Below are positions 11,033-27,780 of a DNA stretch of 32,000 nt, one piece after another. The stretch's first letter is position 1. Each line of letters starts with the position of its first letter. The DNA is from Nitrosomonas europaea (lineage in GTDB: Bacteria > Pseudomonadota > Gammaproteobacteria > Burkholderiales > Nitrosomonadaceae): assembly GCF_900167395.1 (NCBI RefSeq), contig NZ_FUWK01000028.1:1-32000 (forward strand), read 5' to 3'. Both the position numbers and the translations under genes were made by a program. A model generated the notes under the pieces. The model did not search any database, was not told the DNA's origin, and was given only the letters and a program-made list of their open reading frames with translations.

Positions 11033-14000
11033 TTAAGCAGATTCCCGGGACGGAATCCACTTCCTCCATTTTCCCAGTAACGGAAAATAAAGCGCCAGGT
11101 GCATAGGGCGATCTTCCATACGCTGCAGTACTTGTGCATAGCGATCCAGTTGCGGACGGTAACGCAGCTGTTCCCGATCGAGGAATTCCTCAAGGCTGCC
11201 ACCGGTATGAGACCCCGTCTTGTAGTCGATGATCCAGCGCACACCTGCTGCATCCACGAAGGTTCGATCGATGATGCTGACAGAAATCGAGTGGCCCGCT
11301 GCAATTGCCGTTGGAACAGACAGCGCCCATTCACAACGCGCTTCCTGATGCCGATTGCTCAGAATCCAGCGGCCCGTTTCATCTTCCACACACATGGTCC
11401 TGAGGGCTCGTGCAACCTGCTGCACCGCTTTTTCCAAATGCCGGGGGGTGATACCAGATTGTATGAGTAACGACCGCCCCGCCAGTTTGAGAGCTTCCAG
11501 ATCCTGATGATCCACATTCTCGACCCCGATCAGCCCGATACGATGCAACAGGCAGTGCACGACCACCCCCACCAGTCGAGCGGGCTCACCCGCCCAATCG
11601 AAATCAACCGGCTCTTCTGTCGTGCCGGCCTCATTCGCATGCATGGCAACTGCAACGGCTTTGGGCAACGGCGGGGGTTGCCAGCCAGACACCAGGCGCA
11701 CCATGCCAACAAGCTGCAAACCTGTATGTACATTCGATGCAGGCAAATCTCCGATAGCAGCTTCGCGCGATCGTGCCAGAAAATCTGCTGCCACGGCAGG
11801 CCATAACCTGGCCAGCAGGGTATCCTCCGGTGGTTTCAACGCATCATTCTCCTGCATATCCGGATCGATCCTGAGATGCCCCAGTAAATGCAGATTGTGT
11901 TTCGCCCGGGTAACTGCCACATACAGCAATCGCGCCTCTTCCAGCGCAGTCCGTTTCTTTTCTTCAGACAGGATGTAGGCGGAAATCGGATTTTTATCGC
12001 TCCCCGCTGCACTGATCGGCGCGCACAATAAACCCGGATGCTGTGACTGATCGTGAAACTCCAGCCAGTTGAGCAGCTTCTCCTGATCCCGTCTGGGAGA
12101 TTTACCCAGCCCCGGCAGAATTACTGTATCGAACTCCAACCCTTTGGCCTTGTGCAAAGTCATGAGCTGCAATGAATCGTCTGCCGCCACATCCGGCAGA
12201 GCAAACAACCGTACCAGCCGTTCATCCAGCTCCTGGATATCGGGTCGATAGCCGGTCACATCGAAATTTTCCAGCAACTGAAAATAGACTTCGGCGTCTG
12301 CCAGATCTGTTTCATTCTGTACACTGGCGGGCCCTCCCAGACTGACCCATATGCCCTCCACGCATCTTCTCAACGACATCCTGTCGTAGAGCATCAACGC
12401 ACGCTCCAGAATCGGCAATACCCTGTTCACCCGCTGACCGCCTTCTTCACTCAAAACACCTGAACCGGCACAGGCACGCAATGAATCGATCAGCACATGC
12501 TGTGGCAGCGTATTGGCAACGGTATGTAAATCCTGCAGGGAAAGTCCGCAAAACGGGGCGCGCAATAATGCCAGCCAGGCGATACGATCAGCCGGATGCA
12601 CCAGGGCCCGGGTCAATGCCATCAAATCCCGGATCACCACCCGTTGCGCCAGCTGTTCGATTTCCACTGCCTGGAAACGCAAGCCTTTTCGCCTCAAATG
12701 CACAACGATACTCGCCAGATGGCTGCGATTACGCACGAGTACGGCAATTCTGCCATCCGGTTGTGCAGCTCTCGCCTGCGCTACGATCGCCCCCACCTGC
12801 TCCGCCTCGGCCCGATCATCTTTTTGCAGATAAGGATAAATCCTGACCGCCTCCCCGCTGGAAGCCGCATGAAACGCTACGGAACTCGCATACGACACGG
12901 CACCGGTGCTTACGCTATCCGTATCCGGCAATATCCGTGGAAAATAGCGGTTGACCCACTCGACGATCCCGCTCTGCGAACGGAAATTGACTGAAAGACG
13001 CAGAAACCTCATCTGGATCTGGCCAAAATAGCCACTATCGCGAATATCCAGAAACAACCCCACTTCAGCCTGCCGGAAGCGGTAAATCGACTGCATCGGA
13101 TCTCCTACCAGAAACAGCGTGCGGCCGTCTCCGGTCTGCCAGCCGGCAGTCAGCCGCTGCAGCAATTCGGCCTGGCTGGAAGACGTATCCTGAAATTCAT
13201 CCACCAGCAGATGGTGAATACGATAATCGAGTGCCAGTGCCAGATCGGTCGGCATTTCCGGTTCACCCAGCGCACGGACAGCCGCCATAGCAATCTCGGT
13301 AAAATCCACCTGGCCGTGCTGCCGGAAAACCAGCAGCAAATATCCGGCAGCCACCTTGAGCAGGCTGAACAGGGCCTGCAGCGTTTCCCACTCTTCATCG
13401 GTATATCGTTCCGGAGGTAACTGCCTGAGTAACTGCAACTGCTGACGAAATGTCTCCTCGCTCTGCAAAGCCACCAGCAACTCACTCATCCGCTGCTTCA
13501 TTCCGTTCAGGTATTCTTTTACGTCAGCATCACGCACTGACGATGGTGCCGGGAACCCGTTTGCCTTCGTTACCTGTTTACGCCAGTCTCCCGTTTGGGT
13601 GAGCAGGAAATCCGCCATACTCTCCCAGACAAGACGATCTTCAAGTGCGTTACCAGGCCAACGGACTGTATTGCTATCGGCTGATCCTGCTTCTGACAGA
13701 TTGACCGCGGCAAACTGCATCAACTCGATAATTTCCGACTGGCAGCCGGCAGGAACAGCATCAGCCAATCGCTCTATTGCTTCCGCAATCCGGCCTGACA
13801 GCACGGATTCCAGACGATCACGCATATCATCCGAATTAGCGGCATCAACCACACCTCGCAACCATAAATCGCGCCGCGCCAGCATATCGGCAATCAACTG
13901 CTGCAATCTATCGAGACGATTATCCAGATGACCGATCAGATGTTCGATTGCCGCAGTCCACTCACCCTCTTCCTCCAGCGCCTCGACTGTCAAACGGGCT

Positions 14001-14500
14001 GCTTCCAGATACAATCTGTCCGCATCCTCTGCCACTGATGACAAGGCGCCCTGCCGGGAACAGACCGGCATACGGTCGACCAGCCAGGCGCACAAGGAAT
14101 CGATCGTCTGGATACGCAAACGTGACGGATTTTGCAGCAACTGCCAACCCCGCGCCTGATCATGCGCCAGTACCCGGTTTGCCAGCTCCCGTAACTGGCG
14201 CTGGTAAGCATCGTTCAGCAGTGCGGTTTCACTCTCCGCATCGCTATTTATATCACCAGCTGTATCGCGCAAAGCCTGCAGAATCCGATGCTTCATTTCA
14301 CTGGCCGCCTTGCGCGTAAACGTAATGGCAACGATCTCCTCCGGTTCCTCTACCGTAGCAAGCAGCACCAGAAATCGCTGCGTCAGTAACCCTGTCTTGC
14401 CCGATCCAGCCGGCGCTTGAACGATGAAGGAATGCCACGGATCAAGCGCCTGCTGGCGTTCTCTCTGATCTGGAATCTCCTGTTGCAAGACTGTGTTCAT
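11033..14500 (-). CDS. addA: AddA-type UvrD-family helicase with C-terminal PD-(D/E)XK nuclease
   Basis: Walker A 'VQAPAGSGKTG', 'ITFTRKAASEM', motif II 'LLVDEFQDTS', 'FLVGDPMQSIYRFRQA', 'LSVNFRS', 'MTLHKAKGLEFD', 'LLYVAVTRAK', nuclease 'RWIIDYKTG'. Confidence 0.85.
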   Translation of the reverse strand: MNTVLQQEIPDQRERQQALDPWHSFIVQAPAGSGKTGLLTQRFLVLLATVEEPEEIVAITFTRKAASEMKHRILQALRDTAGDINSDAESETALLNDAYQRQLRELANRVLAHDQARGWQLLQNPSRLRIQTIDSLCAWLVDRMPVCSRQGALSSVAEDADRLYLEAARLTVEALEEEGEWTAAIEHLIGHLDNRLDRLQQLIADMLARRDLWLRGVVDAANSDDMRDRLESVLSGRIAEAIERLADAVPAGCQSEIIELMQFAAVNLSEAGSADSNTVRWPGNALEDRLVWESMADFLLTQTGDWRKQVTKANGFPAPSSVRDADVKEYLNGMKQRMSELLVALQSEETFRQQLQLLRQLPPERYTDEEWETLQALFSLLKVAAGYLLLVFRQHGQVDFTEIAMAAVRALGEPEMPTDLALALDYRIHHLLVDEFQDTSSSQAELLQRLTAGWQTGDGRTLFLVGDPMQSIYRFRQAEVGLFLDIRDSGYFGQIQMRFLRLSVNFRSQSGIVEWVNRYFPRILPDTDSVSTGAVSYASSVAFHAASSGEAVRIYPYLQKDDRAEAEQVGAIVAQARAAQPDGRIAVLVRNRSHLASIVVHLRRKGLRFQAVEIEQLAQRVVIRDLMALTRALVHPADRIAWLALLRAPFCGLSLQDLHTVANTLPQHVLIDSLRACAGSGVLSEEGGQRVNRVLPILERALMLYDRMSLRRCVEGIWVSLGGPASVQNETDLADAEVYFQLLENFDVTGYRPDIQELDERLVRLFALPDVAADDSLQLMTLHKAKGLEFDTVILPGLGKSPRRDQEKLLNWLEFHDQSQHPGLLCAPISAAGSDKNPISAYILSEEKKRTALEEARLLYVAVTRAKHNLHLLGHLRIDPDMQENDALKPPEDTLLARLWPAVAADFLARSREAAIGDLPASNVHTGLQLVGMVRLVSGWQPPPLPKAVAVAMHANEAGTTEEPVDFDWAGEPARLVGVVVHCLLHRIGLIGVENVDHQDLEALKLAGRSLLIQSGITPRHLEKAVQQVARALRTMCVEDETGRWILSNRHQEARCEWALSVPTAIAAGHSISVSIIDRTFVDAAGVRWIIDYKTGSHTGGSLEEFLDREQLRYRPQLDRYAQVLQRMEDRPMHLALYFPLLGKWRKWIPSRESA

Positions 14501-14782
14501 CGTTCTAGTCCAGGTACATTATTAGAAACCATCATTGCCAAAAGCTACTGAGCGGCCCGGGGCAGTTCACACAGCCTGAATATAAGATTCGATTTCTATT
14601 CAAAGATCGAATTTACTTGGTTATTAATAGACCAGGCTTTATATCCAATTGAGGATATACAAATGACAAACTCTTAATTAAAGCTACCCTGTAGATGCAC
14701 CTATAGAAAGTGCTAAAACAAAAAACCTGGAAACCGGTGGATACAATTGCGACGAAGACTATGACTTTTTCTCTTTGAGAGA

Positions 14783-15928
14783 TCAGCTAACAGCTTTACA
14801 CAAAACCTCAACGACCCGGTCTTGCTGCTCTACTGATAAACCAACCCAGAGGGGTAACCGAACCAATCTCTCAGATTGTTGAGTAGTAATTTTCAGGTTG
14901 CCATGTATACGTCCGTACCGTAAACCAGCCGGGGAGGAATGAAGGGGCACATAATGGAACACAGACCAAATATCGTTTCTCTTAAATTCGTCAAGTACTT
15001 CTTGCCTATCAATTTTTGATGCCAATAATACATAATACATGTGGGCATTATGCTGACACTCTTCCGGAACGATTGGACGACGCAGAATCTCTTTAGCTTC
15101 AAGTGGCCCAAGCAACTCATGATATCGTTGCCAGCTTGCCAGCCGCTCGTTAGTTATACGGTCTGCTTCTTCAAGCTGCGCCCACAGGAAGGCAGCGATC
15201 AGCTCACCCGGTAAGAATGACGAGCCCACCTCCTGCCAGGTGTACTTGTCCACTTCGCCCCTGAAGAACTGACTGCGATCGGTCCCTTTTTCGCGGATGA
15301 TCTCTGCACGAAGGCTCAGATCAGGTGTATTAACGAGTAGCGCACCGCCTTCTCCCGAGATCACATTTTTTGTTTCGTGGAAACTGTAGGCTCCAAGATC
15401 ACCAATGCTGCCGAGGGCCCGCCCTTTGTAGGTTGACATCACCCCCTGCGCTGCATCCTCAACGACCTTCAATTCATGCTTCTGGGCGATGGCCATAATC
15501 GTATCCATCTCGCACGCCACTCCCGCGTAATGCACGGGAGCAATGGCACGGGTACGCGGCGTAATGGCGGACTCAATCAGCCGTTCGTCCAAATTCAGAG
15601 TGTCTTCTCTGATATCGACAAACACAGGAACCCCACCACGTAGCACAAAGGCATTGGCGGTAGATACAAAGGTGTACGACGGCATGATGACCTCGTCACC
15701 GGGCTGAATATCCAGCAATAAAGCAGCCATCTCGAGTGCCGCCGTGCAAGAGTGAGTAAGCAGACCCTTATTACATCCAGTCCGCTCCTCCAGCCATGCA
15801 TGACAGCGCTTGGTGAAAGGCCCATCGCCTGCCAAGCTACCATTGAAGTGCGCTTCAGCGATGTAGTACAACTCCTTGCCTGTCATGTGAGGCCAGTTGA
15901 ACGGGATGCGGTGATTTGTATTTTTCAC
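14783..15928 (-). CDS. wecE: dTDP-4-keto-6-deoxyhexose 4-aminotransferase, WecE/RffA-like (DegT/DnrJ/EryC1 family)
   Basis: Long stretches match E. coli WecE as I remember it: 'LLDIQPGDEVIMPSYTFVSTANAFVLRGG', 'PVHYAGVACEMDTIMAIA', 'VVEDAAQGVMSTYKGRALGS', 'IIREKGTDRSQFFRGEVDKYTW'. The GTG start overlaps the upstream stop (GTGA). Confidence 0.9.
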   Translation of the reverse strand: MKNTNHRIPFNWPHMTGKELYYIAEAHFNGSLAGDGPFTKRCHAWLEERTGCNKGLLTHSCTAALEMAALLLDIQPGDEVIMPSYTFVSTANAFVLRGGVPVFVDIREDTLNLDERLIESAITPRTRAIAPVHYAGVACEMDTIMAIAQKHELKVVEDAAQGVMSTYKGRALGSIGDLGAYSFHETKNVISGEGGALLVNTPDLSLRAEIIREKGTDRSQFFRGEVDKYTWQEVGSSFLPGELIAAFLWAQLEEADRITNERLASWQRYHELLGPLEAKEILRRPIVPEECQHNAHMYYVLLASKIDRQEVLDEFKRNDIWSVFHYVPLHSSPAGLRYGRIHGNLKITTQQSERLVRLPLWVGLSVEQQDRVVEVLCKAVS

Positions 15929-18174
15929 ACTCTCTCCAAAACCCTGCGTCGAAACGTTTGCGAAAACTTAAAAATAATCAGAACAAACAAGAAAATCCAG
16001 AAAACATGTGCAATCCAGGCGTAGCGGGCAAGAGGCTTGAATTCGAGACGTACTCGGCGAGTTTCTTGAGGCACTAACACGCCCTGAAACACTCCATTGA
16101 CCTCCACAGTCTGCGCGGCCTGCCAACCCTGATTGGTTTCTGCAAGTGCCTCCCAGTCGCGATGAAACTTCTGACTCAATAAAAAAACAGATGGTGCGGA
16201 GGAATTTACCTCAAACTCTAATACATCACCCTGATCCAAAATCTTGACGGGTGTGTTCGTAACCATACCTCGCGGGTCATCGAGCACAAGTTTTGTCGAG
16301 CTCATATCAAGCTGCGGGGGGGTTACTTGCATGCTGTCGCCCATCCGTGAAACCACCCGGTAAAGGTGGATACCCGATTCCTCACTCAAAAACTCCAAAT
16401 TTTCATGCGCCAGCTTGCCCGACGAGAGGATCAGGCTGATATTGCTCATCCAAAACATTGTGCCGGCATAGTCTGGGTCGATGGCTCCATTCCAGCGACC
16501 ATATGTCTGCACTTCCCCACCAAGCGCCTTGATCAAGGTGTGGTATCGGGTGGAAGAGAGGCTGTTATAGCTATGCACAGAAGACAGATCGAGTGTGGCG
16601 TTAAGGTTCGGCGGCAACACTGAAATCCCTGGGGCTGCAACAGCATAACGACTGCCAGCCGGCAGATTTTCCCTAACCTTCTCAACCAGAGGCGAGGTCA
16701 TCGCTATCTGCGCCGGATCTTGCTTAAGCATCAGCGGATAAGAGGTCATACCCAGAACCAACACAAGAGCCATCATCAAAAATAACGGACGGTATCGATC
16801 GTATTGCGCGATTAGTAGCCCAGTCACCAGCAGCATTCCGATGACAATCTCCCAATGAATCGAAATATGCTGCGAAACACCGTATGCAACACCAATCGCA
16901 ATCACTACCAGCGCAACTGCCGCTCCAGCAAATACGGCGCTCGAAAATTGACGGTGATGCGTGCGCCTGGCAAGAGCATCAATACCGAACGCAGTGATAA
17001 TGGTAAGAGGAAGTGTGATACTCCCCAGTGGCGTGCTTCGCGAAAGATTGAACCCAAAGTATTTAACACCCAACACATAGAGTGGATGTACGAAGGCAAG
17101 CAGGCAAAATATAAGAATCGCCAGCCACCACCCCCAGGTTTCCTTGAATGAAGTGACTAACGCCACGACTCCAAAGAAAATAGCGATCAACGTTACGCTC
17201 AAACCGTCGTAAGAAAATGGGAAAGATGGCGCGATCGGATTGCCAAAAATTTCAGGGATTGTACTCAGTACAAAAAAGCGAACCAGCTCAGTAAAGCTGG
17301 CGAACTTTGGAAGCACCATCGTGAAAAACGAGGGATCGGGTGCAACTCGTGCAGACTCGGACGAGAGAATGAACAGATCTCGATAAACAGGAAAAGCGAG
17401 CGCGGCTCCAACAACCAGAGCAGATAAAGCAAGAGTAAGGAATTTGGCAAGTTCAAGTCGGCTGACGCGTGCCTGATGGTATGCCAACCAGAGACCATAG
17501 CCACCCAGCAGGTAGGCATGAAAGACAACCGGCTGCGGGTACGCAGTCATCAGTAGACTGTAACCGCTGAAAGCCAACACGCCCCAGCCCAAAATATCCG
17601 GGCGTTTCGCCAAACGAGTAACAGCCCACAATGCCCCCGCTGCCCAGCACCACACGGCCGGGAACATGGGAAAGGTCAGCCAGTACATGAACAACGGAGA
17701 TGTCGCCAATCCTAGTCCTGCAATCAAGCCAGCTATAGGACTTAAGCCAACTTCCCTGGTAAACAACAAGACAAATAAACCGGCAAGGAAACAGAAACCT
17801 AATGACAACGTGGTGATGAAGCGCCAAGGGCCATCAACCAATCTGGTAATCACCCAAGACGGCAGATAGGCTGAACTAAAGCCTGAAATTTGATAGAGCG
17901 GCCGCCCAAGCTCTGTATTATTTGACCAGAGAGGTAACCAACCAGATCGGGCCATCGTTAGATGCTCTGTTATTTCTGGGATATACGCATTTGTGAAGTC
18001 ACTAAACTTTCTGTTCTCAATGAGGGAGCTATCTAAGTTTACAAGCTCAACGTGACCAACCTCTATCTCCTGCCGGTGTGGTGCTACAACGTAAGAAAAA
18101 AAACCCGAAAACAGTACAGCAGCTACTGCAATGTAATAGATCAACACATGCTTGTAGGAGGAAAATGGAAGCAT
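15925..18174 (-). CDS. Large polytopic membrane protein with C-terminal soluble domain; putative GT-C glycosyltransferase (YfhO-like)
   Basis: About 750 aa. After TM1 there is a loop 'MARSGWLPLWSNNTELGRPLY' resembling the YfhO-family N-terminal loop. Roughly 12 or more hydrophobic segments are followed by a ~250-aa hydrophilic region and a final TM. ATG 18174 is preferred; a GTG at 18222 is possible. Confidence 0.5.
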   Translation of the reverse strand: MLPFSSYKHVLIYYIAVAAVLFSGFFSYVVAPHRQEIEVGHVELVNLDSSLIENRKFSDFTNAYIPEITEHLTMARSGWLPLWSNNTELGRPLYQISGFSSAYLPSWVITRLVDGPWRFITTLSLGFCFLAGLFVLLFTREVGLSPIAGLIAGLGLATSPLFMYWLTFPMFPAVWCWAAGALWAVTRLAKRPDILGWGVLAFSGYSLLMTAYPQPVVFHAYLLGGYGLWLAYHQARVSRLELAKFLTLALSALVVGAALAFPVYRDLFILSSESARVAPDPSFFTMVLPKFASFTELVRFFVLSTIPEIFGNPIAPSFPFSYDGLSVTLIAIFFGVVALVTSFKETWGWWLAILIFCLLAFVHPLYVLGVKYFGFNLSRSTPLGSITLPLTIITAFGIDALARRTHHRQFSSAVFAGAAVALVVIAIGVAYGVSQHISIHWEIVIGMLLVTGLLIAQYDRYRPLFLMMALVLVLGMTSYPLMLKQDPAQIAMTSPLVEKVRENLPAGSRYAVAAPGISVLPPNLNATLDLSSVHSYNSLSSTRYHTLIKALGGEVQTYGRWNGAIDPDYAGTMFWMSNISLILSSGKLAHENLEFLSEESGIHLYRVVSRMGDSMQVTPPQLDMSSTKLVLDDPRGMVTNTPVKILDQGDVLEFEVNSSAPSVFLLSQKFHRDWEALAETNQGWQAAQTVEVNGVFQGVLVPQETRRVRLEFKPLARYAWIAHVFWIFLFVLIIFKFSQTFRRRVLERV

Positions 18175-18181
18175 GTGAATG

Positions 18182-19057
18182 CTAAGCCGATTGTTTTTTT
18201 GCCACAACCAGCCTGGATCCACCGACGGGATAATTCATCCCAAGCCTAATCCCTGCAAGCTCTAACATCATTAAACCGTAAAAAACCTTATTCAAAGCTG
18301 CGTTGATTTTAAGTTCGCCGGCAGGATCGAAATCTTTTGTTTTTCGCTTCTGCAAGACTCGTGAAAGCATCATTACTGGCAAAAGGCTCGTTACAAAAGA
18401 ACTGCTCCTTAAAAGCTCAAAACCGGCGGTCAAAACCTTCTGCTCGATCTCGACACGCGTGTATCGGCGCACATGGCAGGCATAGTCGTCAGAAGCGCTC
18501 CACAACCGGGGATGCTGAGGAACGGTTAGCAGCAAAACACCACTAGGCTTAATGGCGTTATGAAGTTGAGCCAGGACAGTTTCATCTTCTTCGATGTGTT
18601 CCAGCACATCAAAGGCGCCAATGGCATCAAACTCTTCCACAAAAGGCACCCGACGAGCATCCATCTGCATGAAATGTGTGGAGGGAACGCGTTTAGCCGC
18701 ATGAAATAAGCCAGCCAAAAAAATCTCACTGCCATTTAATGCTATTTCAGGGCAGGCACGAGCGATACCCGACAGAACAAAGCCAGTACCACAACCCACC
18801 TCCAAAAATGCGCCAGCGTTTGGCTTGTAGGTGCGCAGCGCCCAGAGAATAAGCTCGTTACGCGCCCGAAACCAGAAATTACCCGCCTCTAATCTGGATA
18901 GCTCTGAGAAGTATTCAGGCTTAAAACCTCCGCCACCATGTGCAAACTCAGAGGCATGAGCCTCTATTCCGTTCAAGCGTTCTGGCTGATAACCGCATGA
19001 AGGACAGGCCCAATCGGCAGAAGAGAAGAAATTTTCGCACTGAAGACAAACTTTCAT
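18182..19057 (-). CDS. Class I SAM-dependent methyltransferase with N-terminal zinc ribbon
   Basis: 'CLQCENFFSSADWACPSCG' (CxxC..CxxC), SAM motif I 'LEVGCGTGF', 'AFDVLEHI'. The C-terminal tail is hydrophobic/amphipathic. ATGA overlap with GtrA. Confidence 0.8.
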   Translation of the reverse strand: MKVCLQCENFFSSADWACPSCGYQPERLNGIEAHASEFAHGGGGFKPEYFSELSRLEAGNFWFRARNELILWALRTYKPNAGAFLEVGCGTGFVLSGIARACPEIALNGSEIFLAGLFHAAKRVPSTHFMQMDARRVPFVEEFDAIGAFDVLEHIEEDETVLAQLHNAIKPSGVLLLTVPQHPRLWSASDDYACHVRRYTRVEIEQKVLTAGFELLRSSSFVTSLLPVMMLSRVLQKRKTKDFDPAGELKINAALNKVFYGLMMLELAGIRLGMNYPVGGSRLVVAKKQSA

Positions 19058-19488
19058 GAGGGAACTCCTTCGGATTCTGCCGCACTCTGCGCAAATACAA
19101 AAAACCGCGACATAACAAACAGAAAGATGGCCACCACGATGATTGCTATCGCCTGTACGATTTGATGCGGAAAACCTAACCAGTCCACAAACAACAGCAG
19201 CAAAACTAAATTCAGCAGATAGCCTGCAACTTGCGCCAGCAGGTAACGGACACCGGTAACGCCAATATGTCCGTCATGTCGAAAAGTATAACGTCGATTG
19301 GCGAAAAACCCAATTGATGCCCCTACGAAGTACAGAGCCGTCATCGTTATCTTGGGAGCGTCCCATAAATAGGTCAGGAGGAGGTAAAAGGCATAACCTA
19401 AAACATTTGTCAGAATGCCAATCAATGCATAGCTAAACAATTGCCGAAATGTTTTTCGAATGGACAAGATTCCAGAATCAGCATTCAT
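19054..19488 (-). CDS. GtrA-family membrane protein (polyprenyl-phosphate-sugar translocation family)
   Basis: 144 aa, four hydrophobic segments, 'FFANRRYTF' GtrA signature. ATGA overlap at both ends. Confidence 0.8.
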   Translation of the reverse strand: MNADSGILSIRKTFRQLFSYALIGILTNVLGYAFYLLLTYLWDAPKITMTALYFVGASIGFFANRRYTFRHDGHIGVTGVRYLLAQVAGYLLNLVLLLLFVDWLGFPHQIVQAIAIIVVAIFLFVMSRFFVFAQSAAESEGVPS

Positions 19489-20270
19489 TTTTCTTCTCTA
19501 AGATTTAAGCTGATATATATTTTTTGTCCTGATTCGTCATCTATAACGTATGCATTTTTTGAGTCTTCAAAAAATGCCAGTCCGCGAAGAAGATTAAAAA
19601 ATTCTACCCCCTGATAACTCTTGTTAAGATCTATCAGGCAGGTTTTTTCAAACTTTTCCCTGGAATAATAGTCGCCCCTTGCCCCCTTCTTTTTTTGCGT
19701 ATCCCTAAGACGGCTACCCAAGTCATAGGTCAGAAGTCGCTCTATTAATTCGTCAAAATGATGGCAAACTATATCATCGAGCCTTGACTGCAATGTTCTA
19801 GCCGTGTCGCTTAGATGTACAGGAACTTCAACTTGCATGAAAATTTCACCATCATCAATTTCTTCGTTGACGAAGTGGTAGGTGAACCCTGTTCTACGCT
19901 CTCCATTGATGATGGCCCAGTTCACGGGATAAACACCACGATATGACGGGAGTAGGCTGTAATGGAGATTTAACACGCCCTGCTTTGGAAGGCTAATTAA
20001 ATCAATGGGAATGATATGCTTCCAGCTCAAAAGCAAAAACCAATCAGCCTGCCGAATCAAACGATCAACCGAGAAAGGCGCCTCATACACAAGCAGAGGG
20101 ATATTTGCCTTCATACATATCTCGCGTACACCAGGCCACCATGCTTTTCCATTTTCGCGAGTCGTGACAACAACTGGAATTTCAAAGCGACTGGCATCAG
20201 AGTGCGTAACAAGCTTTTGAAGAAGCCTATAGCCTATCTCATGATCGACGAAAGGGACTATGCGTTGCAT
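19485..20270 (-). CDS. Sugar N-formyltransferase (Formyl_trans_N fold, ArnA-N/VioF/WbtJ-like)
   Basis: 'NLHYSLLPSYRGVYPVNWAIINGERRTGFTYHFVNEEIDDGEI' is the HxSLLPxxRG...D catalytic signature of N10-formyl-THF transferases. The gene is very AT-rich: 27% and 40% GC in the two 60-nt lines at 19501-19620. Confidence 0.85.
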   Translation of the reverse strand: MQRIVPFVDHEIGYRLLQKLVTHSDASRFEIPVVVTTRENGKAWWPGVREICMKANIPLLVYEAPFSVDRLIRQADWFLLLSWKHIIPIDLISLPKQGVLNLHYSLLPSYRGVYPVNWAIINGERRTGFTYHFVNEEIDDGEIFMQVEVPVHLSDTARTLQSRLDDIVCHHFDELIERLLTYDLGSRLRDTQKKKGARGDYYSREKFEKTCLIDLNKSYQGVEFFNLLRGLAFFEDSKNAYVIDDESGQKIYISLNLREEK

Positions 20271-20273
20271 CGT

Positions 20274-20912
20274 TCACGCCTTCCTTATCAGAATTGTGAA
20301 CTCATAAAGCCCATAGTCATGAAGTAACGCGACTTGGCGGGAATAGCGGCGCTTGCATAAATCAAACAATCGACACGGGTCAGCATAATAGAGATAGTCG
20401 CGCTTTTTGTCCTCGTCGGAGTAAGAAGTCAGGCAGTTGAAAGCGAATCCAAGACTGCTGGTTCGGTTCAGTACGTCCAATGTACCCAGCAGATAGTCAA
20501 ACCACTCAGCATCCGTTCGCTCCAGACGCACATTGAAAATGCCGCTGGCGACACCATAGTCCGCCACTTGGTCTGGTTCAGTTGAGGTGATAAAGCGAGC
20601 TTGATTGGCGGCAGTGTGTCGCTGCCTGGCAGCTTTGATCATTTCGTGGGAAACATCCACCCCGAGGTATATACAGGCTGCATACTTGTCTCGCAGATAG
20701 TCCAGCAATGCGCCATAGCCACAACCCAGGTCGTTCAAGGAAAAACCAGGCATCTTCTTCGGGTCAATCACTTTACAGAGCTGCTCAAATCGAATCGTTT
20801 GGCTTTCTTCACCATTCCAGTCGACCCCGCGAGGCGTATCACCATGTTCCGCAAGTTTTTCAGCGTAATACGTTGCAACTTCGTCGAGCAGCTTAGTCTT
20901 GTTGTTTTGCAT
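20274..20912 (-). CDS. Class I SAM-dependent methyltransferase
   Basis: Motif I 'LNDLGCGYGALLDYL', post-I 'YLGVDVS'. 212 aa. Overlaps the GT2 gene end by 20 nt. Confidence 0.75.
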   Translation of the reverse strand: MQNNKTKLLDEVATYYAEKLAEHGDTPRGVDWNGEESQTIRFEQLCKVIDPKKMPGFSLNDLGCGYGALLDYLRDKYAACIYLGVDVSHEMIKAARQRHTAANQARFITSTEPDQVADYGVASGIFNVRLERTDAEWFDYLLGTLDVLNRTSSLGFAFNCLTSYSDEDKKRDYLYYADPCRLFDLCKRRYSRQVALLHDYGLYEFTILIRKA

Positions 20913-21822
20913 AAATCTGCCTCACGATGGTATAGGGGCGCTGCTTGGTTTCCGAGAATATCTTGGATAAGTAGATGCCCACCACACCAATGAAAGAGAT
21001 AATCATCCCACCAAGAAGCCAAATAGAAGCCATTACGGATGTCCATCCGGCTAAAGGTTTTGCCAAGAAAAGCCAGTGAGTAACCAGATAAGCGATATAA
21101 GCCAAAGCAAACAACGAGATCGATATACCGATATAAAAAATGCTGACCAGTGGGGTGTTACTGAATGATGTCACCGAGTTGACCAGCAAGGACATTTTTC
21201 TGCGGAAGGTGTATGTGGTCTCGCTAGTATTGTGCTTTTTGATGACATAAGGGCGCTGGTCAAACCCGGTGATGTACCACAAGCCCGCCATAAAAACTTC
21301 CCGCTCTTCATGGCGCAGCAAAGCATTAACGTACCGACGAGTCATCAGGCGCGCGGTGACAACATTTTCCGGCAATGCAAGACCCGTCAGTGCTTTGAAA
21401 AAGCGATAGAACCACTGTCCACTCCAGCGCTCAAACCAGCTCCCTTTTCTGCGTTCCTGAATTCCGTACACCACATCACAACTCTCCTGCTCCATCTGCT
21501 GCACGAATGTCTCTAGCCATTCAGGCTCCTCCTCCAGGTCGCTATCAATCAAAAAAACTCGCTCCCCCTTTGCGTGCGCCAAGCCAGTCATCATCGCCTT
21601 GTGGTGTCCAAAATTACGCGACAAATCAACAACAACAACGTGCGAATCCTGCTCCGTGAGTTTGACGGCCAGATCCAAGCTGTTGTCTGGTGATCCGTCG
21701 TTTACAAGAACTATTTCGTAATCGTCCCCAACCAGCCGCCTTGCCGTGGCACTCGCACGCTCGTGAAATTCATTGATGTAGGGCGCAGACTGATAAAGAG
21801 TTGCGACGATCGAGAGCTTCAT
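20893..21822 (-). CDS. GT2 polyprenyl-phosphate glycosyltransferase (ArnC/GtrB/CsbB/DPM1-like)
   Basis: 'LSIVATLYQSAPYI', 'IVLVNDGSPDNS', 'LSRNFGHHKAMMTGLAHAKGERVFLIDSDLEEEPE', plus two C-terminal TM helices. This is the standard ArnC/GtrB architecture. Confidence 0.9.
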   Translation of the reverse strand: MKLSIVATLYQSAPYINEFHERASATARRLVGDDYEIVLVNDGSPDNSLDLAVKLTEQDSHVVVVDLSRNFGHHKAMMTGLAHAKGERVFLIDSDLEEEPEWLETFVQQMEQESCDVVYGIQERRKGSWFERWSGQWFYRFFKALTGLALPENVVTARLMTRRYVNALLRHEEREVFMAGLWYITGFDQRPYVIKKHNTSETTYTFRRKMSLLVNSVTSFSNTPLVSIFYIGISISLFALAYIAYLVTHWLFLAKPLAGWTSVMASIWLLGGMIISFIGVVGIYLSKIFSETKQRPYTIVRQIYAKQQD

Positions 21823-21944
21823 TTGAACAGTTGATCAAGGTTGAATGGGATATGTACTGCCAACAACCACCAAAAGGTGTGCTCAATCAACACAATCCCT
21901 TACGATTGGTTAGTTCGCCAGTAACCAGGCTGTGCAAGATCTTG

Positions 21945-22277
21945 TCATGGGTCAGTTTGCGCGTTGCAAGTGAGCGCACTTGCAGCAATGATGGCATCTG
22001 GCAGCTTTACGCGGTGGCTACGACGCAAACCAATAACCATATCTTCAATCTCTTTGGTCAGGGGCAGATACTGGAGGCAGGCCAGTTTTCCACTAATCAG
22101 AATTTCTTCTTCCGCAGTCAATCCCGGAAAGCCCAGTAACTCCATACGAGTGATTGCGCTATAGCCGCAACGCCGGGTATCAATCTGCTGATTACTGATC
22201 ATGGACAATGTTTCAGGATTGGATTTCAATAGCCCAAGAATAAAGTTGGTATCAAGCAGCCAGTCAATCCCATTCAC
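21945..22277 (-). CDS. vapC: PIN-domain toxin (VapC-like), possibly C-terminally truncated
   Basis: A GTG at 22275-22277 overlaps the antitoxin stop (GTGAATGGGATTGA). '(M)NGIDWLLDTNFILGL' carries the first acidic residue, with 'ITRMELLG' and 'LPDAIIAASAL' further on. The ORF ends abruptly at 'NAQTDP'. Confidence 0.7.
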   Translation of the reverse strand: MNGIDWLLDTNFILGLLKSNPETLSMISNQQIDTRRCGYSAITRMELLGFPGLTAEEEILISGKLACLQYLPLTKEIEDMVIGLRRSHRVKLPDAIIAASALTCNAQTDP

Positions 22278-22485
22278 GGCGCAGTGCCTCCTGTACTGCC
22301 AACGGTTCCCCGGCAAAGCAGGCTGAATGTTCCAGCCCACCGGCCATATCAATCAGCCGGAAAGGCTCATCTGGTTGCGGAAGCATGTTCTTCTGGTGTA
22401 GAAATTCGGCAAAATCCAGCAACTCTGCCAGAGCAGCAGGTGGTAGCGTACTACTGAGTTTGTAAAGCCGTTCGATTGTTGACAT
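22264..22485 (-). CDS. Antitoxin, DUF2281-like
   Basis: 'MSTIERLYKLSSTLPPAALAELLDFAEFLHQK' resembles the DUF2281 N-terminus commonly paired with PIN toxins. AAGAGGA lies 7 nt upstream of ATG 22485. The track ORF extends to a TTG at 22503. Confidence 0.6.
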   Translation of the reverse strand: MSTIERLYKLSSTLPPAALAELLDFAEFLHQKNMLPQPDEPFRLIDMAGGLEHSACFAGEPLAVQEALRREWD

Positions 22486-22562
22486 TGTCATTCCTCTTTC
22501 CAACGTATCGTATCGATTATCCGATCAAATTTCCTGCTCGTCATATCGAAATGATCGTGAGA

Positions 22563-23255
22563 TTATTCCACATACTTCATATAACGCTTCGCGTTCTTCC
22601 CGCAATTGAGCAACAAATCAAGAATGGTAACGCCATGTGTGAATTCCCCCCAGAGTTGCTGATATTCCGGATACCCGATGTAATCAAACCAGGTGAGTTT
22701 GATGCCATTCTCTTTAAAAACCTGCTCATCCACGTAATCTTTTGCCGCCGGGCCTGAGATGTACTCAGTGCCACCAGCCTGCACACAAAGGTCAGCAAGG
22801 CGTTCGGTCTTGCCATCGAGCAGGGTGTAATCCCATGAATTTTTAATTACCGTCTTGATCCCCAGGTAGTTACAGATAGCTTCAATAAATCTCCTGTTCA
22901 ATTGTGAAATATGGGTGAAGGTCTCTGCGAGATAGAGTGGCTCCAGCCATGCAGCAATCTCAGTAAAATGCGGTGAACGACGATAGTTCTGCACCAAGGC
23001 TTTCCAATGCGCAGCTGCCCAATCAGTACCGTCGATTTCGGTCTCGCGAATCTTTTGATGGTATTTACCCTTCACCAGAACCGGAACCGTGAGCCACTGA
23101 ACACCTTGAGGTGTTTTGATCTGATTACGATTTCGCCAATCGCGGCGCGTATATTGCATATCATCGTAGAGGATGAACTCATCTACGGCAGCAATCATAT
23201 CGAAGTAACCCTTCCACGGTATGTAGTTGGATTGCACGATGGCGACTTTTTTCAT
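22563..23255 (-). CDS. WbqC-family protein (function unknown; found in O-antigen/amino-sugar clusters)
   Basis: '[47 protein letters not shown]' is the characteristic WbqC-like N-terminus. ATGA overlap with the upstream membrane-protein gene. Confidence 0.75.
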
Positions 23256-24835
23256 TGTCCTGCGTTTCTCGTTTTATAGATTTGATACGCTGGATTATGT
23301 GAATTTGGCACCAATTCAAAATTGTTCAGGATAAATTGGTAAATTAACGGATGTGTATTTTTAAAACGCAGCTCGTCACGACCATCAAGAGGCAGATCAA
23401 AAATAAACGCAAAACCAGGGTCAGATGCCTTGATGCGTTCGATCTCTTTTTTCTCGAATGCTCCTGTGCGGGGAAATAATGCATAAATCTCCCACATGGG
23501 CGACCTTCGCTCCAGCAAAGCATAAGCACCAGGCCAAAAGGGTGTGGCAATAAAAGACCGTCCATCTGGAGCGAACTGATCAGTCAATTGATGGAGCAAT
23601 GCAATGTCACTCGCCGTATTTGGATCGACCTGGAGATACTTGCCAGATATATCCACATTGACGCACTGTTTGCTTGCCAGGCATTGCCACCCAGGGTGAA
23701 ACACATGCATCACCCAGAAGCTTGTCATAAATAGACCAGCAGCAAGAACCCACTTTGTTTTGCTGGACGCACTTGACGCTATGGCCAGAATCCCGATCAA
23801 AAGTGGGAATATACCTTGAGCAAGGTGCCCAACGTCAGCGCGAGAAAACGCGTAATGCGCATAAGGAAGCGCGAGAAATGCTGATGCGACCAACACTGGC
23901 GGTAAGGGCTTTTCCTTCAATCCTCGATAAACGACCCATATAACTGAAAGCCCCCCAAAGATTAGGGTTCCAATAAAGAAAATACCGATCAATACACCCC
24001 GCGCAGCATCACCGATAGAAGAGGCAGCAAAGTTGATTGTCCACGGCCAGGGCACGGGTAGTGGCAAATTAGTGGCTTTTTGTTCAAACAAAAATCGCAC
24101 ACTTTCCCAGAATGCAACTGCAAAACCTGGAATCAGGAGCGCCATGAAAATAATAGGGAGAAAGCCGATCGTAACCCCTACACTCCAAAGTACAAACCCT
24201 TTCAAAAATCCGGTATCAGAACGGTTCCTGATATTGAGCCAAGCGATAACACCAAGGCTACCTACAGCACCGTAAACGCCATGATTACGACCAAAAACAG
24301 CAATCAATCCGACACAGATGCCAGCAATAAGATAGCGTTTGGGAATGGGGTTTGAAACAAGATAAGTCAGAATTCCGATCAGAAATATAGAGATGGAAAT
24401 ATCGAAAAGCTTGTGGCGTGGAAACATCCATAACACCAGTATCGCTGCAGAGATTATCCAGAAGAGAATATCAGCTTTATCTCTGCTCTTTGTCGACTGC
24501 GCAATCAACAACAAACCAACGAATAAGCCGAGGCACTGGAAAACAGCCACTGCTATACGGACACTCATAATACCGTTGTCACCAGCAACACTCAGTAGTG
24601 CTGCAACCCAGTAATAACGACCGGGATCATAGGACATAAAATCACGAATCGGGATTTCACCCAGCAAAACTCGCTGGACGCCGTACCACAGATAGCCTTC
24701 ATCCCACAAGTTAAAGCCCTTGTTACCCTGCCAAATAAACAGTAAAAAGATGACAAGGCATGAAATCGTCAGAATCTGGATTAGTCTATATTTATTGTTT
24801 TGTATTTCTGGCTCATCCATATACGCATCCGGCAC
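23252..24835 (-). CDS. Polytopic membrane protein; putative GT-C glycosyltransferase (ArnT/PMT-like)
   Basis: About 12 hydrophobic segments. The first extracytoplasmic loop, '[34 protein letters not shown]', has an acidic DE motif where GT-C enzymes carry theirs. About 150 C-terminal residues are soluble. Start is GTG 24835 or ATG 24820. Confidence 0.45.
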
Positions 24836-24964
24836 TAAAATGCCATTGTAATCTACAGCAAAGAGAGCGTCACCTTCTCACGGATTGTTGCGAATGGCAT
24901 CAGCACGTTGCACTGGCCATCCACCAGGGTCCATAGACAAGAACAAGTAATAGCACTGCAAATA

Positions 24965-27694
24965 TCAACAATCATCCACAGCTTCCAGCGATTCACCGAT
25001 TCTGCACAGAGGTTTGAGCTCGCAGTAAGTGCAGGTTTGCGGGTATTGTTTAGGGCTCACTCTGGCTTCTCCGGCCATAAAATCCTGCACCAGTTGCTCG
25101 ATCGTCTGGCGCCAGCCGGCCAATACTTCATCCCAGCTTGCTGCTTCCCGGGTATGTCTCAGGTTTTCGAAAGATTTTATTCCCAGGATCGATACTTCTT
25201 CGCTTGCTACACCCTCAAACGCAATATCACCTGCTCTGATGCGGGCAAATGCAATCCCGGCCAGCCCGTCATCAGTAAATGCCAGACTGTATAGCGGCAA
25301 TTGCGGTTCATCGGGGCGATCGCCAAACCACGCACTTGCTTTGACTTCACCGGTTTTGTAGTCGATGAGCAGTTCACCCCCTTCTTCCAGCGTATCGATG
25401 CGGTCTATCCTCAAATTGATGCGCAGGCCGTTCAGTTCAAGCTCCGTTTCCATTTCCCGGCCTGAAACACGGAAAGGGGGGCGCTGCTTTTCCATTTCCA
25501 GCCACGCCAGCACGAGAGCATGCAATCGTTTGCTTTCAAGTGCTTGCAGACGCTCACCAAAAGTGTGCGGATAGCGCGGAGCGATTTCGTATATCGCTTC
25601 ATTCACCTTGCCGGCGACCAGTGCATTCAGCTCACCAGGGGACAAATTTGCCAGTGCTGCTAACGAATCCAGTTCAGCCCAGACCATTTCCATGACCCGG
25701 TGCAGCAAAGTGCCGCGTACCAGCGCATTCAGACCGATCTGTATGCGGCCCAGTGGACGGGCGACCAGCCGCAGTTCGGCAAATGCCCGGAACGGGCAGG
25801 CTGCCTGTAACTTGAACAGCTTGCTGCCGCCCGGAATACCCGTTCCGACAAATGTCGGGGCAACATCCTCGGACAGCACCTCCTGTTGTCGACTGTGATA
25901 CACGCTGTCTCGCCAGGCGGATTGCGTACCCATGGCGAGCATTTCTTCACTCAACGCCGGGAAAGCATCGATCAGTGGACTGGAATCGAGGATTTCATCG
26001 CCCTTACGCTGCGGATAGCTGATGACAACCTCAGTAGCATTCGTGGTAATTCGCTGCAACAGCGCTGCTGCCACACGTAATTCACGCCTGGCGCTGGAAT
26101 GCGGCGCATCAACCTCACGCTGCAAGGTCAGAGGAAGAAACGGATTGGGCCGGGATGATGCGGGAAATACGCCGTCATGCAATCCCATGATCCAGAGATA
26201 GTCGAACTGCAGCCCGCTGGTTTCAAACAACCCCAATACCTGCACAGGCGCCTCCGCTGATTCCGGCTGAAAAATCGTACCGGCAACCATGTGCCTGAGT
26301 TGCTGCAGCGCTTCAGTCAAACTGACCGACCGAATTACCCAGTCCAGCGTGGAAAATTCTCTCAGTACCCCCTGCCATGCCTGGATAACCTGATATTCCT
26401 CGCTGGACAATCCTCGCTCACCTGGCCAGCCGATTGCTTTCAGCCACTGTCCGAATCGCTGCGCCCACTCTCCCGGGCTCGTTGGCGCAAGTGATACTTT
26501 CACCTGCTTCATCAAATTACTCAGACATTCGGCCAGCAGTGGACACGAATAGGGCTGGCCACTGCGAGCCGCATTCGTCAGCAGCTTTTGCAGGGTCAGA
26601 TTCCATTCACCCGATTCGCGCAGACGAGCATCCAGCAAGGCGCGCGCATTCATTTCCCGATCCCCGCCCGCAATGAAAGAAGAACGCAGCACACGACTGA
26701 CATGCGGCAACTCGATGACAGTTTCTGATAAACCGAGAACATCCAGCGCCAGACTGACGGGTGGATAGCGGTCGAGCGGCTTGCCAAGCGACAAATTGTA
26801 AGAACGCACCCGATCATGATGCTCCGGCTGCAATGCTTGTGGAATCAGCACTTCATCCAGTGTCTGGCAGATCATTTCCCGCTGTGCGGCCAGTTCCGGC
26901 ACGACCAGCGCAATCCTCGCCGCCGGATTTTCCTCCAAACGTTGCCGTATCCAGCGCGCCGCCTGCCGGATCTCGTCACGACCGTCTGCGCACGCCAGCT
27001 TGCCGATACGATCCGGCTGACCGGATAACTGTAACCACTGCAATGAGCATCCCGTCTGTTCGAATGCACGCAGAAACGATGATTGCTGCGGTGTCCACTC
27101 ATCGAAACCGGTCAACACAAGCTCGTTCGGCACTGACAGGCTGTCGATCTGCACGTATTTCTGCAATATTCCGGGCAGAACGGCGACTGAAAGCCAGCTA
27201 TTTTTCCGGCATTTCGCTTCGAACATCGAGGCCAGTTGCCAGAACAACCGGGTATCGGCGTTATGACCGAAATCCGCTTCCCGGCAGGGAATACACCATG
27301 CATGCAGTGTCTGCCATGCTTCCATGATACGAGCGACAGTCTCGTTGGTGGCCTGTAACGGAACATCGCCGGACTGTTCTGCCAGAATTTCCTGCCAGAC
27401 GAAATACTCCTGATGGGAAGTCAGTAACACCCCCGGGGCCGATTCAATCCGGCTGGAAATGACCACCTCCTGCCACAGCTGCTGCAACCATGCATCCCAG
27501 GGCAGAATATCCGGTGCGGGCCATGCCCCGTGTCCTTCCGCAGACCTGGCCTGATTGAATGCCTGATGAAGGGCACGCGCCAGCCGCCGGTTTCCGGTCA
27601 CAATCGTTGCACAGCCATCCAGTCTTTGGATAAGATCGGTGATGTTAGTCTGTCGGGCGTCGAACGGGCGGGTCGTCATGGCCGGATTTTCCAT
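24965..27694 (-). CDS. addB: AddB-type PD-(D/E)XK nuclease subunit with Fe-S cluster cysteines
   Basis: N-terminus 'TIVTGNRRLARAL'. Nuclease 'LLIDYKTGEV...EPQLPLYSL'. Cys set 'AACPFRAF' plus 'QTCTYCELKPLC' (four Cys, AddB/Cas4-like). ATG 27694 is preferred; the track uses a TTG at 27703. Confidence 0.8.
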   Translation of the reverse strand: MENPAMTTRPFDARQTNITDLIQRLDGCATIVTGNRRLARALHQAFNQARSAEGHGAWPAPDILPWDAWLQQLWQEVVISSRIESAPGVLLTSHQEYFVWQEILAEQSGDVPLQATNETVARIMEAWQTLHAWCIPCREADFGHNADTRLFWQLASMFEAKCRKNSWLSVAVLPGILQKYVQIDSLSVPNELVLTGFDEWTPQQSSFLRAFEQTGCSLQWLQLSGQPDRIGKLACADGRDEIRQAARWIRQRLEENPAARIALVVPELAAQREMICQTLDEVLIPQALQPEHHDRVRSYNLSLGKPLDRYPPVSLALDVLGLSETVIELPHVSRVLRSSFIAGGDREMNARALLDARLRESGEWNLTLQKLLTNAARSGQPYSCPLLAECLSNLMKQVKVSLAPTSPGEWAQRFGQWLKAIGWPGERGLSSEEYQVIQAWQGVLREFSTLDWVIRSVSLTEALQQLRHMVAGTIFQPESAEAPVQVLGLFETSGLQFDYLWIMGLHDGVFPASSRPNPFLPLTLQREVDAPHSSARRELRVAAALLQRITTNATEVVISYPQRKGDEILDSSPLIDAFPALSEEMLAMGTQSAWRDSVYHSRQQEVLSEDVAPTFVGTGIPGGSKLFKLQAACPFRAFAELRLVARPLGRIQIGLNALVRGTLLHRVMEMVWAELDSLAALANLSPGELNALVAGKVNEAIYEIAPRYPHTFGERLQALESKRLHALVLAWLEMEKQRPPFRVSGREMETELELNGLRINLRIDRIDTLEEGGELLIDYKTGEVKASAWFGDRPDEPQLPLYSLAFTDDGLAGIAFARIRAGDIAFEGVASEEVSILGIKSFENLRHTREAASWDEVLAGWRQTIEQLVQDFMAGEARVSPKQYPQTCTYCELKPLCRIGESLEAVDDC

Positions 27695-27780
27695 GTTTCG
27701 CAAACAGTCTGATAATCAATGCTGTACGCAGGCAGAGTAATACAATTCAATTTTTGAAACAGTTTTTATCAGGAGAACCA

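Follow-up and report, generated by a model that had tools for sequence, protein, structure and literature searches.

A gene cassette of Nitrosomonas europaea predicted to decorate an envelope glycan with a lipid-linked N-formylated 4-amino-6-deoxyhexose

We analysed a 32,000-nucleotide (nt) stretch of Nitrosomonas europaea DNA (the window) that carries, on its minus strand, a putative glycosylation cassette centred on a large membrane protein, here called Big749, which an exact protein match identifies as NE2168/CAD86079 of N. europaea ATCC 19718. The original prediction, made from the sequence alone, had described a run of seven translationally coupled minus-strand open reading frames (ORFs) devoted to a 4-amino-6-deoxyhexose, and both the ORF listing and the sequence confirm the seven ORFs, their positions and their junctions. 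They are given below with two further genes, encoding a WbqC-family protein and a membrane protein, P527, that lie upstream on the same strand.

14783-15928, minus strand: WecE-type aminotransferase, 381 amino acids (aa).
15925-18174, minus strand: Big749 (NE2168), 749 aa from the ATG at 18174, or 765 aa from an alternative GTG at 18222.
18182-19057, minus strand: MT291, a zinc-ribbon S-adenosylmethionine (SAM) methyltransferase, 291 aa.
19054-19488, minus strand: GtrA, 144 aa.
19485-20270, minus strand: FT261, a sugar N-formyltransferase, 261 aa.
20274-20912, minus strand: MT212, a SAM methyltransferase, 212 aa.
20893-21822, minus strand: GT2, a polyprenyl-phosphate glycosyltransferase, 309 aa.
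22563-23255, minus strand: WbqC-family protein, soluble, with an ATGA overlap with the P527 stop.
23252-24820, minus strand: P527, polytopic, with an alternative GTG start at 24835; first gene of the conserved cassette.

From the GT2 gene onwards, GT2 and MT212 overlap by 20 nt, and the next junctions are a 3-nt gap, an ATGA, a second ATGA, a 7-nt gap (MT291/Big749, counted from the ATG at 18174) and a GTGA. The 20-nt overlap is found again in distant genomes of other classes (L007, L009 and L010), and is thus a conserved trait rather than a product of chance. Six of the seven family assignments made beforehand hold in Pfam and NCBIfam, namely the WecE-type aminotransferase, the N-formyltransferase, GtrA, the GtrB/ArnC-type GT2 and the two SAM methyltransferases. 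The absence of rmlA/rmlB, of a 4,6-dehydratase and of an ArnD-type deacetylase was also correctly called, none being encoded among the window ORFs of at least 130 aa. Scans of the window for Rfam families and tRNAs returned neither, and those for promoters and terminators remained at or below the shuffled expectation.

We mapped the window proteins onto 34 loci that encode relatives of the 749-aa protein, collected by a genome-wide scan. A recurrent gene order emerged: P527, WbqC, GT2, MT212, a variable slot, GtrA or a 124-aa EamA/SMR protein, MT291, the 749-aa protein and WecE. This order is conserved in Beta-, Gamma-, Delta- and Alphaproteobacteria, Phycisphaerae and Cyanobacteria. A WecE homologue is encoded in 23 of the 34 loci, the gene being adjacent to that of the 749-aa protein in most loci, and a GT2 homologue in 22. 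WbqC is present in 19 and P527 in 16, always just upstream of WbqC; MT291 (15/34) usually immediately precedes the 749-aa gene, and MT212 (12/34) always follows GT2. The proposed unit of seven genes was therefore too narrow, since P527 and WbqC also belong to the conserved cassette, the WbqC gene directly abutting that of GT2 in other genomes. Judged from this gene order, WbqC is a core member of the cassette, presumably performing a conserved step.

The formyltransferase behaves differently. It had been presented as a core part, a view that the comparison does not bear out: a clear homologue is found in a single locus out of 34 (L007, same slot, 49% identity), and the protein is one occupant among several of the variable slot, located between MT212 and the flippase, whose contents differ by genome. 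The slot holds the formyltransferase in the window and in L007, a hexapeptide (LbH) acyltransferase with a 306-aa protein alongside in 12 loci, and an ATP-grasp enzyme, a methyltransferase and a phosphoesterase in L011, while L017, L028 and L037 add SDR, GNAT and AMP-ligase proteins. These contents agree with an exchangeable module for N-acylation at the 4-amino group, and they are best explained by an N-acyl group that is formyl here and acetyl, or a more complex acyl, in other genomes. The protein of about 306 aa has no Pfam match (L009 8637-9554, L013 7673-8593 and 14 other loci); it occurs in all 12 acyltransferase loci and in 16 loci overall, and is missing wherever the formyltransferase fills the slot.

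The neighbourhood of the cassette elsewhere is informative. The genes wzm and wzt, the latter with a Wzt_C domain, adjoin it in L007, L009, L010 and L012, and manC-rmlD-rmlC-rmlA-rmlB adjoin it in L012. Because of these neighbours, a dTDP-sugar precursor and an O-polysaccharide acceptor are both supported.

The aminotransferase matches Pfam DegT_DnrJ_EryC1 (E 3.6e-85). It passes both WecE models (NF008687, 630.9 bits against a cut-off of 375; TIGR02379, 700.7 against 434.85) and fails the ArnB equivalog NF008658 (198.7 bits against a cut-off of 631), as expected from its earlier description as WecE-type rather than ArnB-type. The nearest solved structure is that of E. coli WecE (4piw, 513 bits over residues 5-376), and WecE identity is 75-88% across phyla. 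Since the WecE models are passed and E. coli WecE is the nearest structure, the predicted product is more likely dTDP-Fuc4N (4-amino-4,6-dideoxygalactose) than its gluco counterpart Qui4N. Of the two sugar types initially put forward, Fuc4N, the galacto form, is thus reinforced by the WecE model scores and Qui4N made less likely.

FT261 contains Formyl_trans_N (PF00551, 95 bits, E 5e-27) and N_formyltrans_C (PF18216, 48 bits, E 8e-13), both above threshold, and so has the Formyl_trans_N core and small C-terminal dimerisation domain of sugar N-formyltransferases. Its matches in the PDB include the ArnA N-domain, 6nbp, WbkC, VioF, WbtJ, Rv3404c and dTDP-Qui4N formyltransferases, those to VioF, WbtJ, Rv3404c and 6nbp reaching into the C-terminal domain. 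These matches bear out its identification as a 261-aa sugar N-formyltransferase; with 84 bits for a cut-off of 238, it falls short of NF005755, the equivalog model for dTDP-Qui4N formyltransferases. MT212 is a class I SAM methyltransferase in which Methyltransf_25, Methyltransf_12 and Methyltransf_11 cover the SAM-binding N-terminal part only. MT291 gives generic class I matches (Methyltransf_23, 11, 25 and 12 in Pfam) and begins with the CxxC...CxxC expected from the zinc ribbon ascribed to it. The two methyltransferases probably act on the sugar, or on its nucleotide- or lipid-linked form, at the cytoplasmic side.

GT2 contains a Glycos_transf_2 domain (PF00535, E 2.1e-29) followed by a C-terminal pair of transmembrane (TM) helices, and aligns over its full length (residues 2-304) with Synechocystis GtrB (5ekp, 164 bits) and ArnC (9hwj, 137 bits). 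Among NCBIfam models the best is PgfS (188 bits), ArnC reaching 135.6 bits for a cut-off of 529, and every equivalog cut-off is missed. On these alignments, GT2 is in all probability a polyprenyl-phosphate glycosyltransferase, and its product is predicted to be undecaprenyl phosphate (Und-P)-linked N-formyl-Fuc4N. GtrA matches PF04138 (GtrA_DPMS_TM, E 1e-18) and is the presumed flippase of the Und-P-sugar. The flippase role is supported by the fact that an unrelated small transporter, the 124-aa EamA/SMR-type protein, stands in for GtrA at the same position in 6-7 related loci.

Big749 has no match in Pfam or NCBIfam, PF09586 (YfhO) and PF13231 included, at permissive thresholds and also when 22 aligned homologues were searched, and its family profile finds nothing among PDB sequences. 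The profile check advised for the protein of about 750 aa thus gave neither family: for PF09586 there is no match at E<=10, and one of 23 homologues reaches E=5. The best approach to YfhO is that of a distant Chloroflexota relative (E=0.027), which aligns with the C-terminal end of the model and scores 13.3 bits for a cut-off of 28.5. RefSeq and UniProt nevertheless label Big749 as YfhO. We modelled the protein with AlphaFold2 (AF2) from 23 homologues (pLDDT 78.8, pTM 0.82). About 13 TM helices are seen in the model, followed towards the C terminus by a periplasmic beta-sandwich domain and one last TM helix; many TM helices, then an extracytoplasmic domain and a closing TM helix are also the layout described for YfhO. 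The top 26 Foldseek matches of the model are all GT-C enzymes, among them AftD (1.7e-6), ArnT (3.7e-6), STT3/PglB, Emb, Pmt4 and AftB, with E-values from 1.7e-6 to 1e-3 for AftD, ArnT, STT3, PglB and Emb. Loop 1 contains four invariant residues, E53, N54, K56 and D59. The model therefore supports a GT-C fold, and Big749 is predicted to be a periplasmic transferase of a lipid-linked sugar. Of its earlier description as a YfhO-like GT-C protein, the GT-C half is upheld by AF2 and Foldseek; membership of the YfhO family is not established, for no profile is passed and what remains is the topology, the database labels and one sub-threshold match. By an exhaustive profile search, the family counts 1596 cluster representatives at E<=1e-3, a number that drops to 270 when the threshold is set at E<=1e-30. 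In a Roseiflexaceae contig (L034, 1071-7461), three paralogues of the family stand in tandem, which suggests that it has diversified for different acceptors or donors.

P527 also lacks any Pfam, NCBIfam or PDB sequence match at permissive thresholds, the Pfam and NCBIfam searches extending to 22 aligned homologues. Its AF2 model (pLDDT 78, pTM 0.79) has as top Foldseek matches STT3, AftA, ArnT, EmbA/B, PglB and ALG9 (E 8e-5 to 1e-2, probability 1.0), and an invariant WDEG motif (W39 D40 E41 G42) follows the first TM helix. P527 is accordingly modelled, and predicted, as a second unclassified GT-C family; hhalign detects no relationship between it and the Big749 family. Two sizeable GT-C families, one of about 1,600 cluster representatives, would thus be uncaptured by current Pfam and NCBIfam. 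In some loci (L015 8391-9995, L017 7748-9451 and L018 8403-9992), a third unclassified membrane protein, of about 530 aa, is encoded immediately before the 749-aa gene; its first TM helix is followed by a conserved WETNDD motif, and its sequence is unrelated to that of P527.

The anticipated combination of GT2, GtrA and GT-C therefore holds, GT2 aligning with GtrB and ArnC over its full length and the 749-aa model matching GT-C enzymes only. The locus has the three parts of such a system: the GT2 that ends in a membrane domain, GtrA as the small flippase and, by structure prediction, the GT-C fold. On balance we favour, as reasonably probable, the reading that the cassette is a three-component, lipid-carrier-dependent periplasmic glycosylation system that uses Und-P-linked N-formyl-Fuc4N (Und-P-Fuc4NFo) as donor and decorates an envelope glycan. 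In the scheme that follows, each enzyme is placed by its family or fold, and its substrate, like the final acceptor, is the one that we infer. RmlA and RmlB, encoded elsewhere in the genome, would supply dTDP-4-keto-6-deoxy-D-glucose, which the WecE orthologue would aminate to dTDP-Fuc4N. FT261 would then formylate the latter with N10-formyl-tetrahydrofolate to give dTDP-Fuc4NFo, and the GtrB/ArnC-type GT2, given its full-length homology, would place the sugar on undecaprenyl phosphate. The resulting Und-P-Fuc4NFo would be flipped by GtrA and transferred to the acceptor by Big749, and probably also by the upstream P527 (522 aa), whose folds are modelled and whose activities are predicted. The wzm/wzt and rml genes that neighbour the cassette elsewhere make an Und-PP-linked O-polysaccharide or the lipopolysaccharide (LPS) core the most likely acceptor.

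Several points weigh against this scheme. It assigns no role to the two methyltransferases, to WbqC or to the second GT-C enzyme. GT2 lies below all NCBIfam equivalog cut-offs, so that its donor specificity is not fixed by sequence, and the substrate of FT261 could be something other than a sugar 4-amine. The GT-C calls derive from predicted structures whose global superposition is loose (TM score 0.33-0.49), and model confidence is low in the catalytic loop 1 of Big749. No O-antigen genes adjoin the cassette in N. europaea, and the window itself does not point to an acceptor. Finally, our literature search returned no paper mentioning NE2167-NE2176, and all protein roles given here are predictions.

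Among known systems, the Gtr type (GtrA/GtrB/GtrC of Shigella and Salmonella phages, gmlABC of Klebsiella and a system of Citrobacter) shares with the cassette a polyprenyl-phosphate GT2 that ends in a membrane domain, a small flippase and a periplasmic transferase of GT-C fold, and gmlABC adjoins wzm/wzt, as the cassette does in other genomes. Precedents for three-component periplasmic modification of O-polysaccharides have been described, including the Citrobacter pentofuranose system (PMC11127046). Gtr-type systems draw on UDP-Glc, UDP-Gal or phosphoribosyl pyrophosphate, whereas for the cassette the predicted source of the donor is a dTDP-linked N-acyl-4-amino-4,6-dideoxyhexose. Unlike them, the cassette encodes its own tailoring enzymes (aminotransferase, formyltransferase, two methyltransferases and WbqC) and has two GT-C proteins of families outside Pfam.

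The closest precedent in logic, as likened by gene descriptions, is wxcK-wxcO of Xanthomonas, in which an aminotransferase, an N-acyltransferase, a glycosyltransferase and a translocase add a branch of N-acylated aminodideoxyhexose. The Xanthomonas translocase is GtrA-like, and the O-antigen there is of the ABC-transporter type. In X. campestris, these genes of the LPS3 region are credited with the Fuc3NAc side branches of the rhamnan O-antigen, wxcK encoding a transaminase, wxcL a glycosyltransferase, wxcM an acetyltransferase/isomerase, wxcN a sugar transferase and wxcO a sugar translocase (PMC12573098). The Xanthomonas system employs a 3-amino sugar (FdtB-type aminotransferase and isomerase) and an acetyl group, whereas the cassette would employ a 4-amino sugar (WecE-type) and a formyl group; the cassette has in addition WbqC, the two methyltransferases and the two large GT-C proteins.

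The teichoic acid glycosylation system CsbB/GtcA/YfhO also combines a GT2, a flippase of the GtrA family and a large GT-C enzyme (PMC8035078, PMC7389260). It differs from the cassette in that the host of the latter is Gram-negative, that the predicted sugar is another one, and that no member of the 749-aa family reaches the Pfam YfhO threshold. The cassette is not an enterobacterial common antigen locus, a candidate that we rejected: WecE alone is common to both, and the WecD, WecF, WzxE and WzyE families are not in the window. In agreement with what had been stated at the outset, we found in the literature no published characterisation of a pathway of this make-up, nor any characterised Und-P-Qui4N/Fuc4N system.

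Resemblance to the Arn pathway had been proposed, and it stands as far as the logic is concerned. The order of the chemistry is common to both (4-amination, then N-formylation, loading of Und-P by a GT2, flipping and GT-C transfer), and ArnC and the ArnA N-domain are detectable homologues of GT2 and FT261. Membership is another matter: FT261 scores 97.6 bits with the ArnA model for a cut-off of 777 and has no ArnA decarboxylase domain, no polysaccharide-deacetylase-type protein that could be ArnD is found among the window ORFs or the recurrent cassette genes elsewhere, and neither GT-C protein has a PMT/ArnT-family sequence match. We therefore rejected membership, none of the sequence tests for ArnB, the ArnA decarboxylase, ArnD, the ArnC equivalog and ArnT being passed. 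The sugar differs as well, a UDP-pentose in Arn and a predicted dTDP-6-deoxyhexose in the cassette, which has WbqC and two methyltransferases as extras. In the FlmF2/NaxD/FlmK system of Francisella, which modifies lipid A with galactosamine, a GT2 likewise loads Und-P with an N-acylated amino sugar that a GT-C enzyme then transfers; that system requires the deacetylase NaxD, and no NaxD equivalent was found in the cassette.

These likenesses raise the question of whether the cassette could serve to modify the charge of lipid A in the manner of Arn, Und-P-Fuc4NFo being deformylated at the membrane and cationic Fuc4N transferred onto lipid A phosphates to confer resistance to cationic peptides. 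The set of aminotransferase, formyltransferase, polyprenyl-phosphate GT2, flippase and GT-C protein indeed has its counterpart in ArnB/ArnA/ArnC/ArnEF/ArnT; both GT-C models have ArnT among their best structural matches, GT2 is homologous to ArnC over its full length, and an SMR/EamA-type protein like ArnE/F replaces GtrA in some relatives. However, neither the window nor the conserved cassette has a deacylase of ArnD or NaxD type, and an acyl group that is variable and sometimes complex elsewhere is easier to understand as a decoration that is kept than as a temporary protecting group. Such a role would leave the two methyltransferases and the large carbohydrate-binding-like periplasmic domain unexplained, and the cassette keeps company with wzm/wzt rather than with lipid A genes, the lpxK of the window lying outside the inserted block described below. 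We regard this explanation as improbable. The acceptor might instead be a protein or another polymer than LPS, as in protein O-glycosylation (PgfS/PgfM, PMT) or in the decoration of capsule, exopolysaccharide or peptidoglycan. In NCBIfam, GT2 does best, at 188 bits and below cut-off, with PgfS, an enzyme of protein glycosylation in Streptococcus; the structural matches of the GT-C models include OST/PglB and Pmt enzymes, and O-antigen genes do not flank the cassette in N. europaea. Structural matches at this level cannot tell acceptors apart, though, and the informative contexts are those with ABC-transporter O-polysaccharide export and rml genes, which leaves a non-LPS acceptor unlikely.

A still more distant prospect, very improbable in our view, is that the cassette is a fragment of a cytoplasmic polysaccharide-assembly pathway, in which GT2 adds its sugar directly to an Und-PP-linked repeat unit and the large membrane proteins are of polymerase, ligase or export type. 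GT2 enzymes are very diverse, and both large membrane proteins are without a sequence-family assignment, as such a pathway would allow. But GT2 matches GtrB and ArnC over its full length, C-terminal membrane domain included, a flippase of GtrA or SMR type is always present, and the significant Foldseek matches are GT-C enzymes only, without a Wzy/WaaL-type or transporter fold among them; moreover, the cassette has no initiating phosphoglycosyltransferase, no Wzx and no Wzy. Decoration of an envelope glycan from Und-P-Fuc4NFo is hence the reading that we retain. If true, it would extend three-component periplasmic glycosylation to a donor derived from a dTDP-linked N-acyl-4-amino-6-deoxyhexose with a modular acyl group, an expected variation on a known mechanism that introduces no new principle. 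It also predicts for N. europaea a specific, horizontally acquired envelope decoration, which could affect phage susceptibility, aggregation or biofilm behaviour in wastewater systems. To our knowledge, the surface glycans of this model ammonia oxidiser are poorly described.

WbqC offers a further possibility. The protein is clearly assigned to its family (PF08889, E 6.7e-85) and has no PDB relative by sequence or profile; the literature yielded no function for it. We take the family to be named from the O-antigen gene cluster of E. coli O121 type. E. coli O121 carries N-acetyl-glycine, and WbqC-domain proteins are found in an E. coli O-antigen cluster. In Streptomyces operons, a WbqC gene occurs with a dedicated prolyl-tRNA synthetase (ProRS), a tRNA and LmbE (PMC10404621). 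The origin of the name, this WbqC/ProRS/tRNA context and the constancy of WbqC while the acyl module varies hint at a candidate reaction in which an amino acid would be transferred to the sugar amine, possibly from an aminoacyl-tRNA, before the variable-slot enzyme caps it (with formyl here). The candidate outcome would be a sugar of the Qui4N(N-acetylglycyl) type, as in E. coli O121. This reaction belongs to a bolder view, which we hold to be unlikely, of the cassette as a self-contained, widely transferred sugar-capping module in which two unrecognised GT-C families would be joined by a new tailoring reaction of WbqC on the 4-amino sugar. The orphan WbqC family gains a tightly conserved and testable pathway context.

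The cassette lies within a block inserted between the genes of AddB and AddA, together with a pair of small genes resembling a toxin-antitoxin system.

11033-14500, same strand as the cassette: addA, flanking the block.
14501-24964, minus strand: inserted block of about 10.5 kb, between the addA start (14500) and the addB stop (24965).
21945-22352, minus strand: PIN-domain, VapC-like toxin gene (PF01850, E 4.3e-8), called from a shorter start as 110 or 130 aa in identical contigs.
22264-22503, minus strand: DUF2281 antitoxin-like gene (PF10047, E 1.1e-14), 73 aa in identical contigs.
24965-27703, same strand as the cassette: addB, flanking the block.

In N. communis (CP011451), the end of addB and the start of addA share 4 nt, and the G+C content of the block is 0.43-0.52 against 0.55-0.57 in addA and addB. 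Its position between two genes that overlap in N. communis and its lower G+C thus identify the block as an insertion; by this comparison, the cassette has apparently split an ancestrally coupled addBA operon. WecE and WbqC are 75-90% identical in unrelated phyla, which indicates horizontal spread, and horizontal acquisition is the best explanation for the presence of the cassette (NE2167 onward) in N. europaea. A tblastn search of plasmid and phage collections with the 749-aa protein gave no match, so that nothing speaks for spread on plasmids or phages; the repeats found when island boundaries were sought were only short ones, at chance level. The VapBC-like DUF2281/PIN pair (21945-22503) splits WbqC from GT2 and is missing there in all other genomes examined; from this distribution, it is evidently a lineage-specific insertion, which may stabilise the cassette. 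In GCA_009612875.1, a closer relative (AddA 85% identical), unrelated genes precede addA, which suggests that the addB/addA junction is a rearrangement hotspot.

The surroundings of the block also show features of their own. Downstream of addA, a FecA-type TonB-dependent receptor with an STN domain is encoded at 8254-10806 (minus strand); the same position beside addA is occupied in near-identical strains by a phage-type integrase (L005) or by other genes (L006), so that the region is variable. At 4214-4771 (minus strand), a 185-aa ORF has only an N-terminal Glyco_trans_4 domain, the syntenic gene of a related Nitrosomonas (L041) encoding 418 aa; it has the appearance of a truncated GT4 remnant, and two alpha/beta hydrolases and a TPR protein are encoded in the same neighbouring cluster. 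An AmpD-type amidase ORF lies on the plus strand at 30242-30799, and the nearly co-extensive 182-aa ORF on the minus strand, which has no family match, is probably spurious. The 396-aa protein encoded at 6938-8128 (plus strand) joins LpxK to a Trm112p-like zinc-finger domain at the C terminus, a fusion also present in the related Nitrosomonas contig L041.

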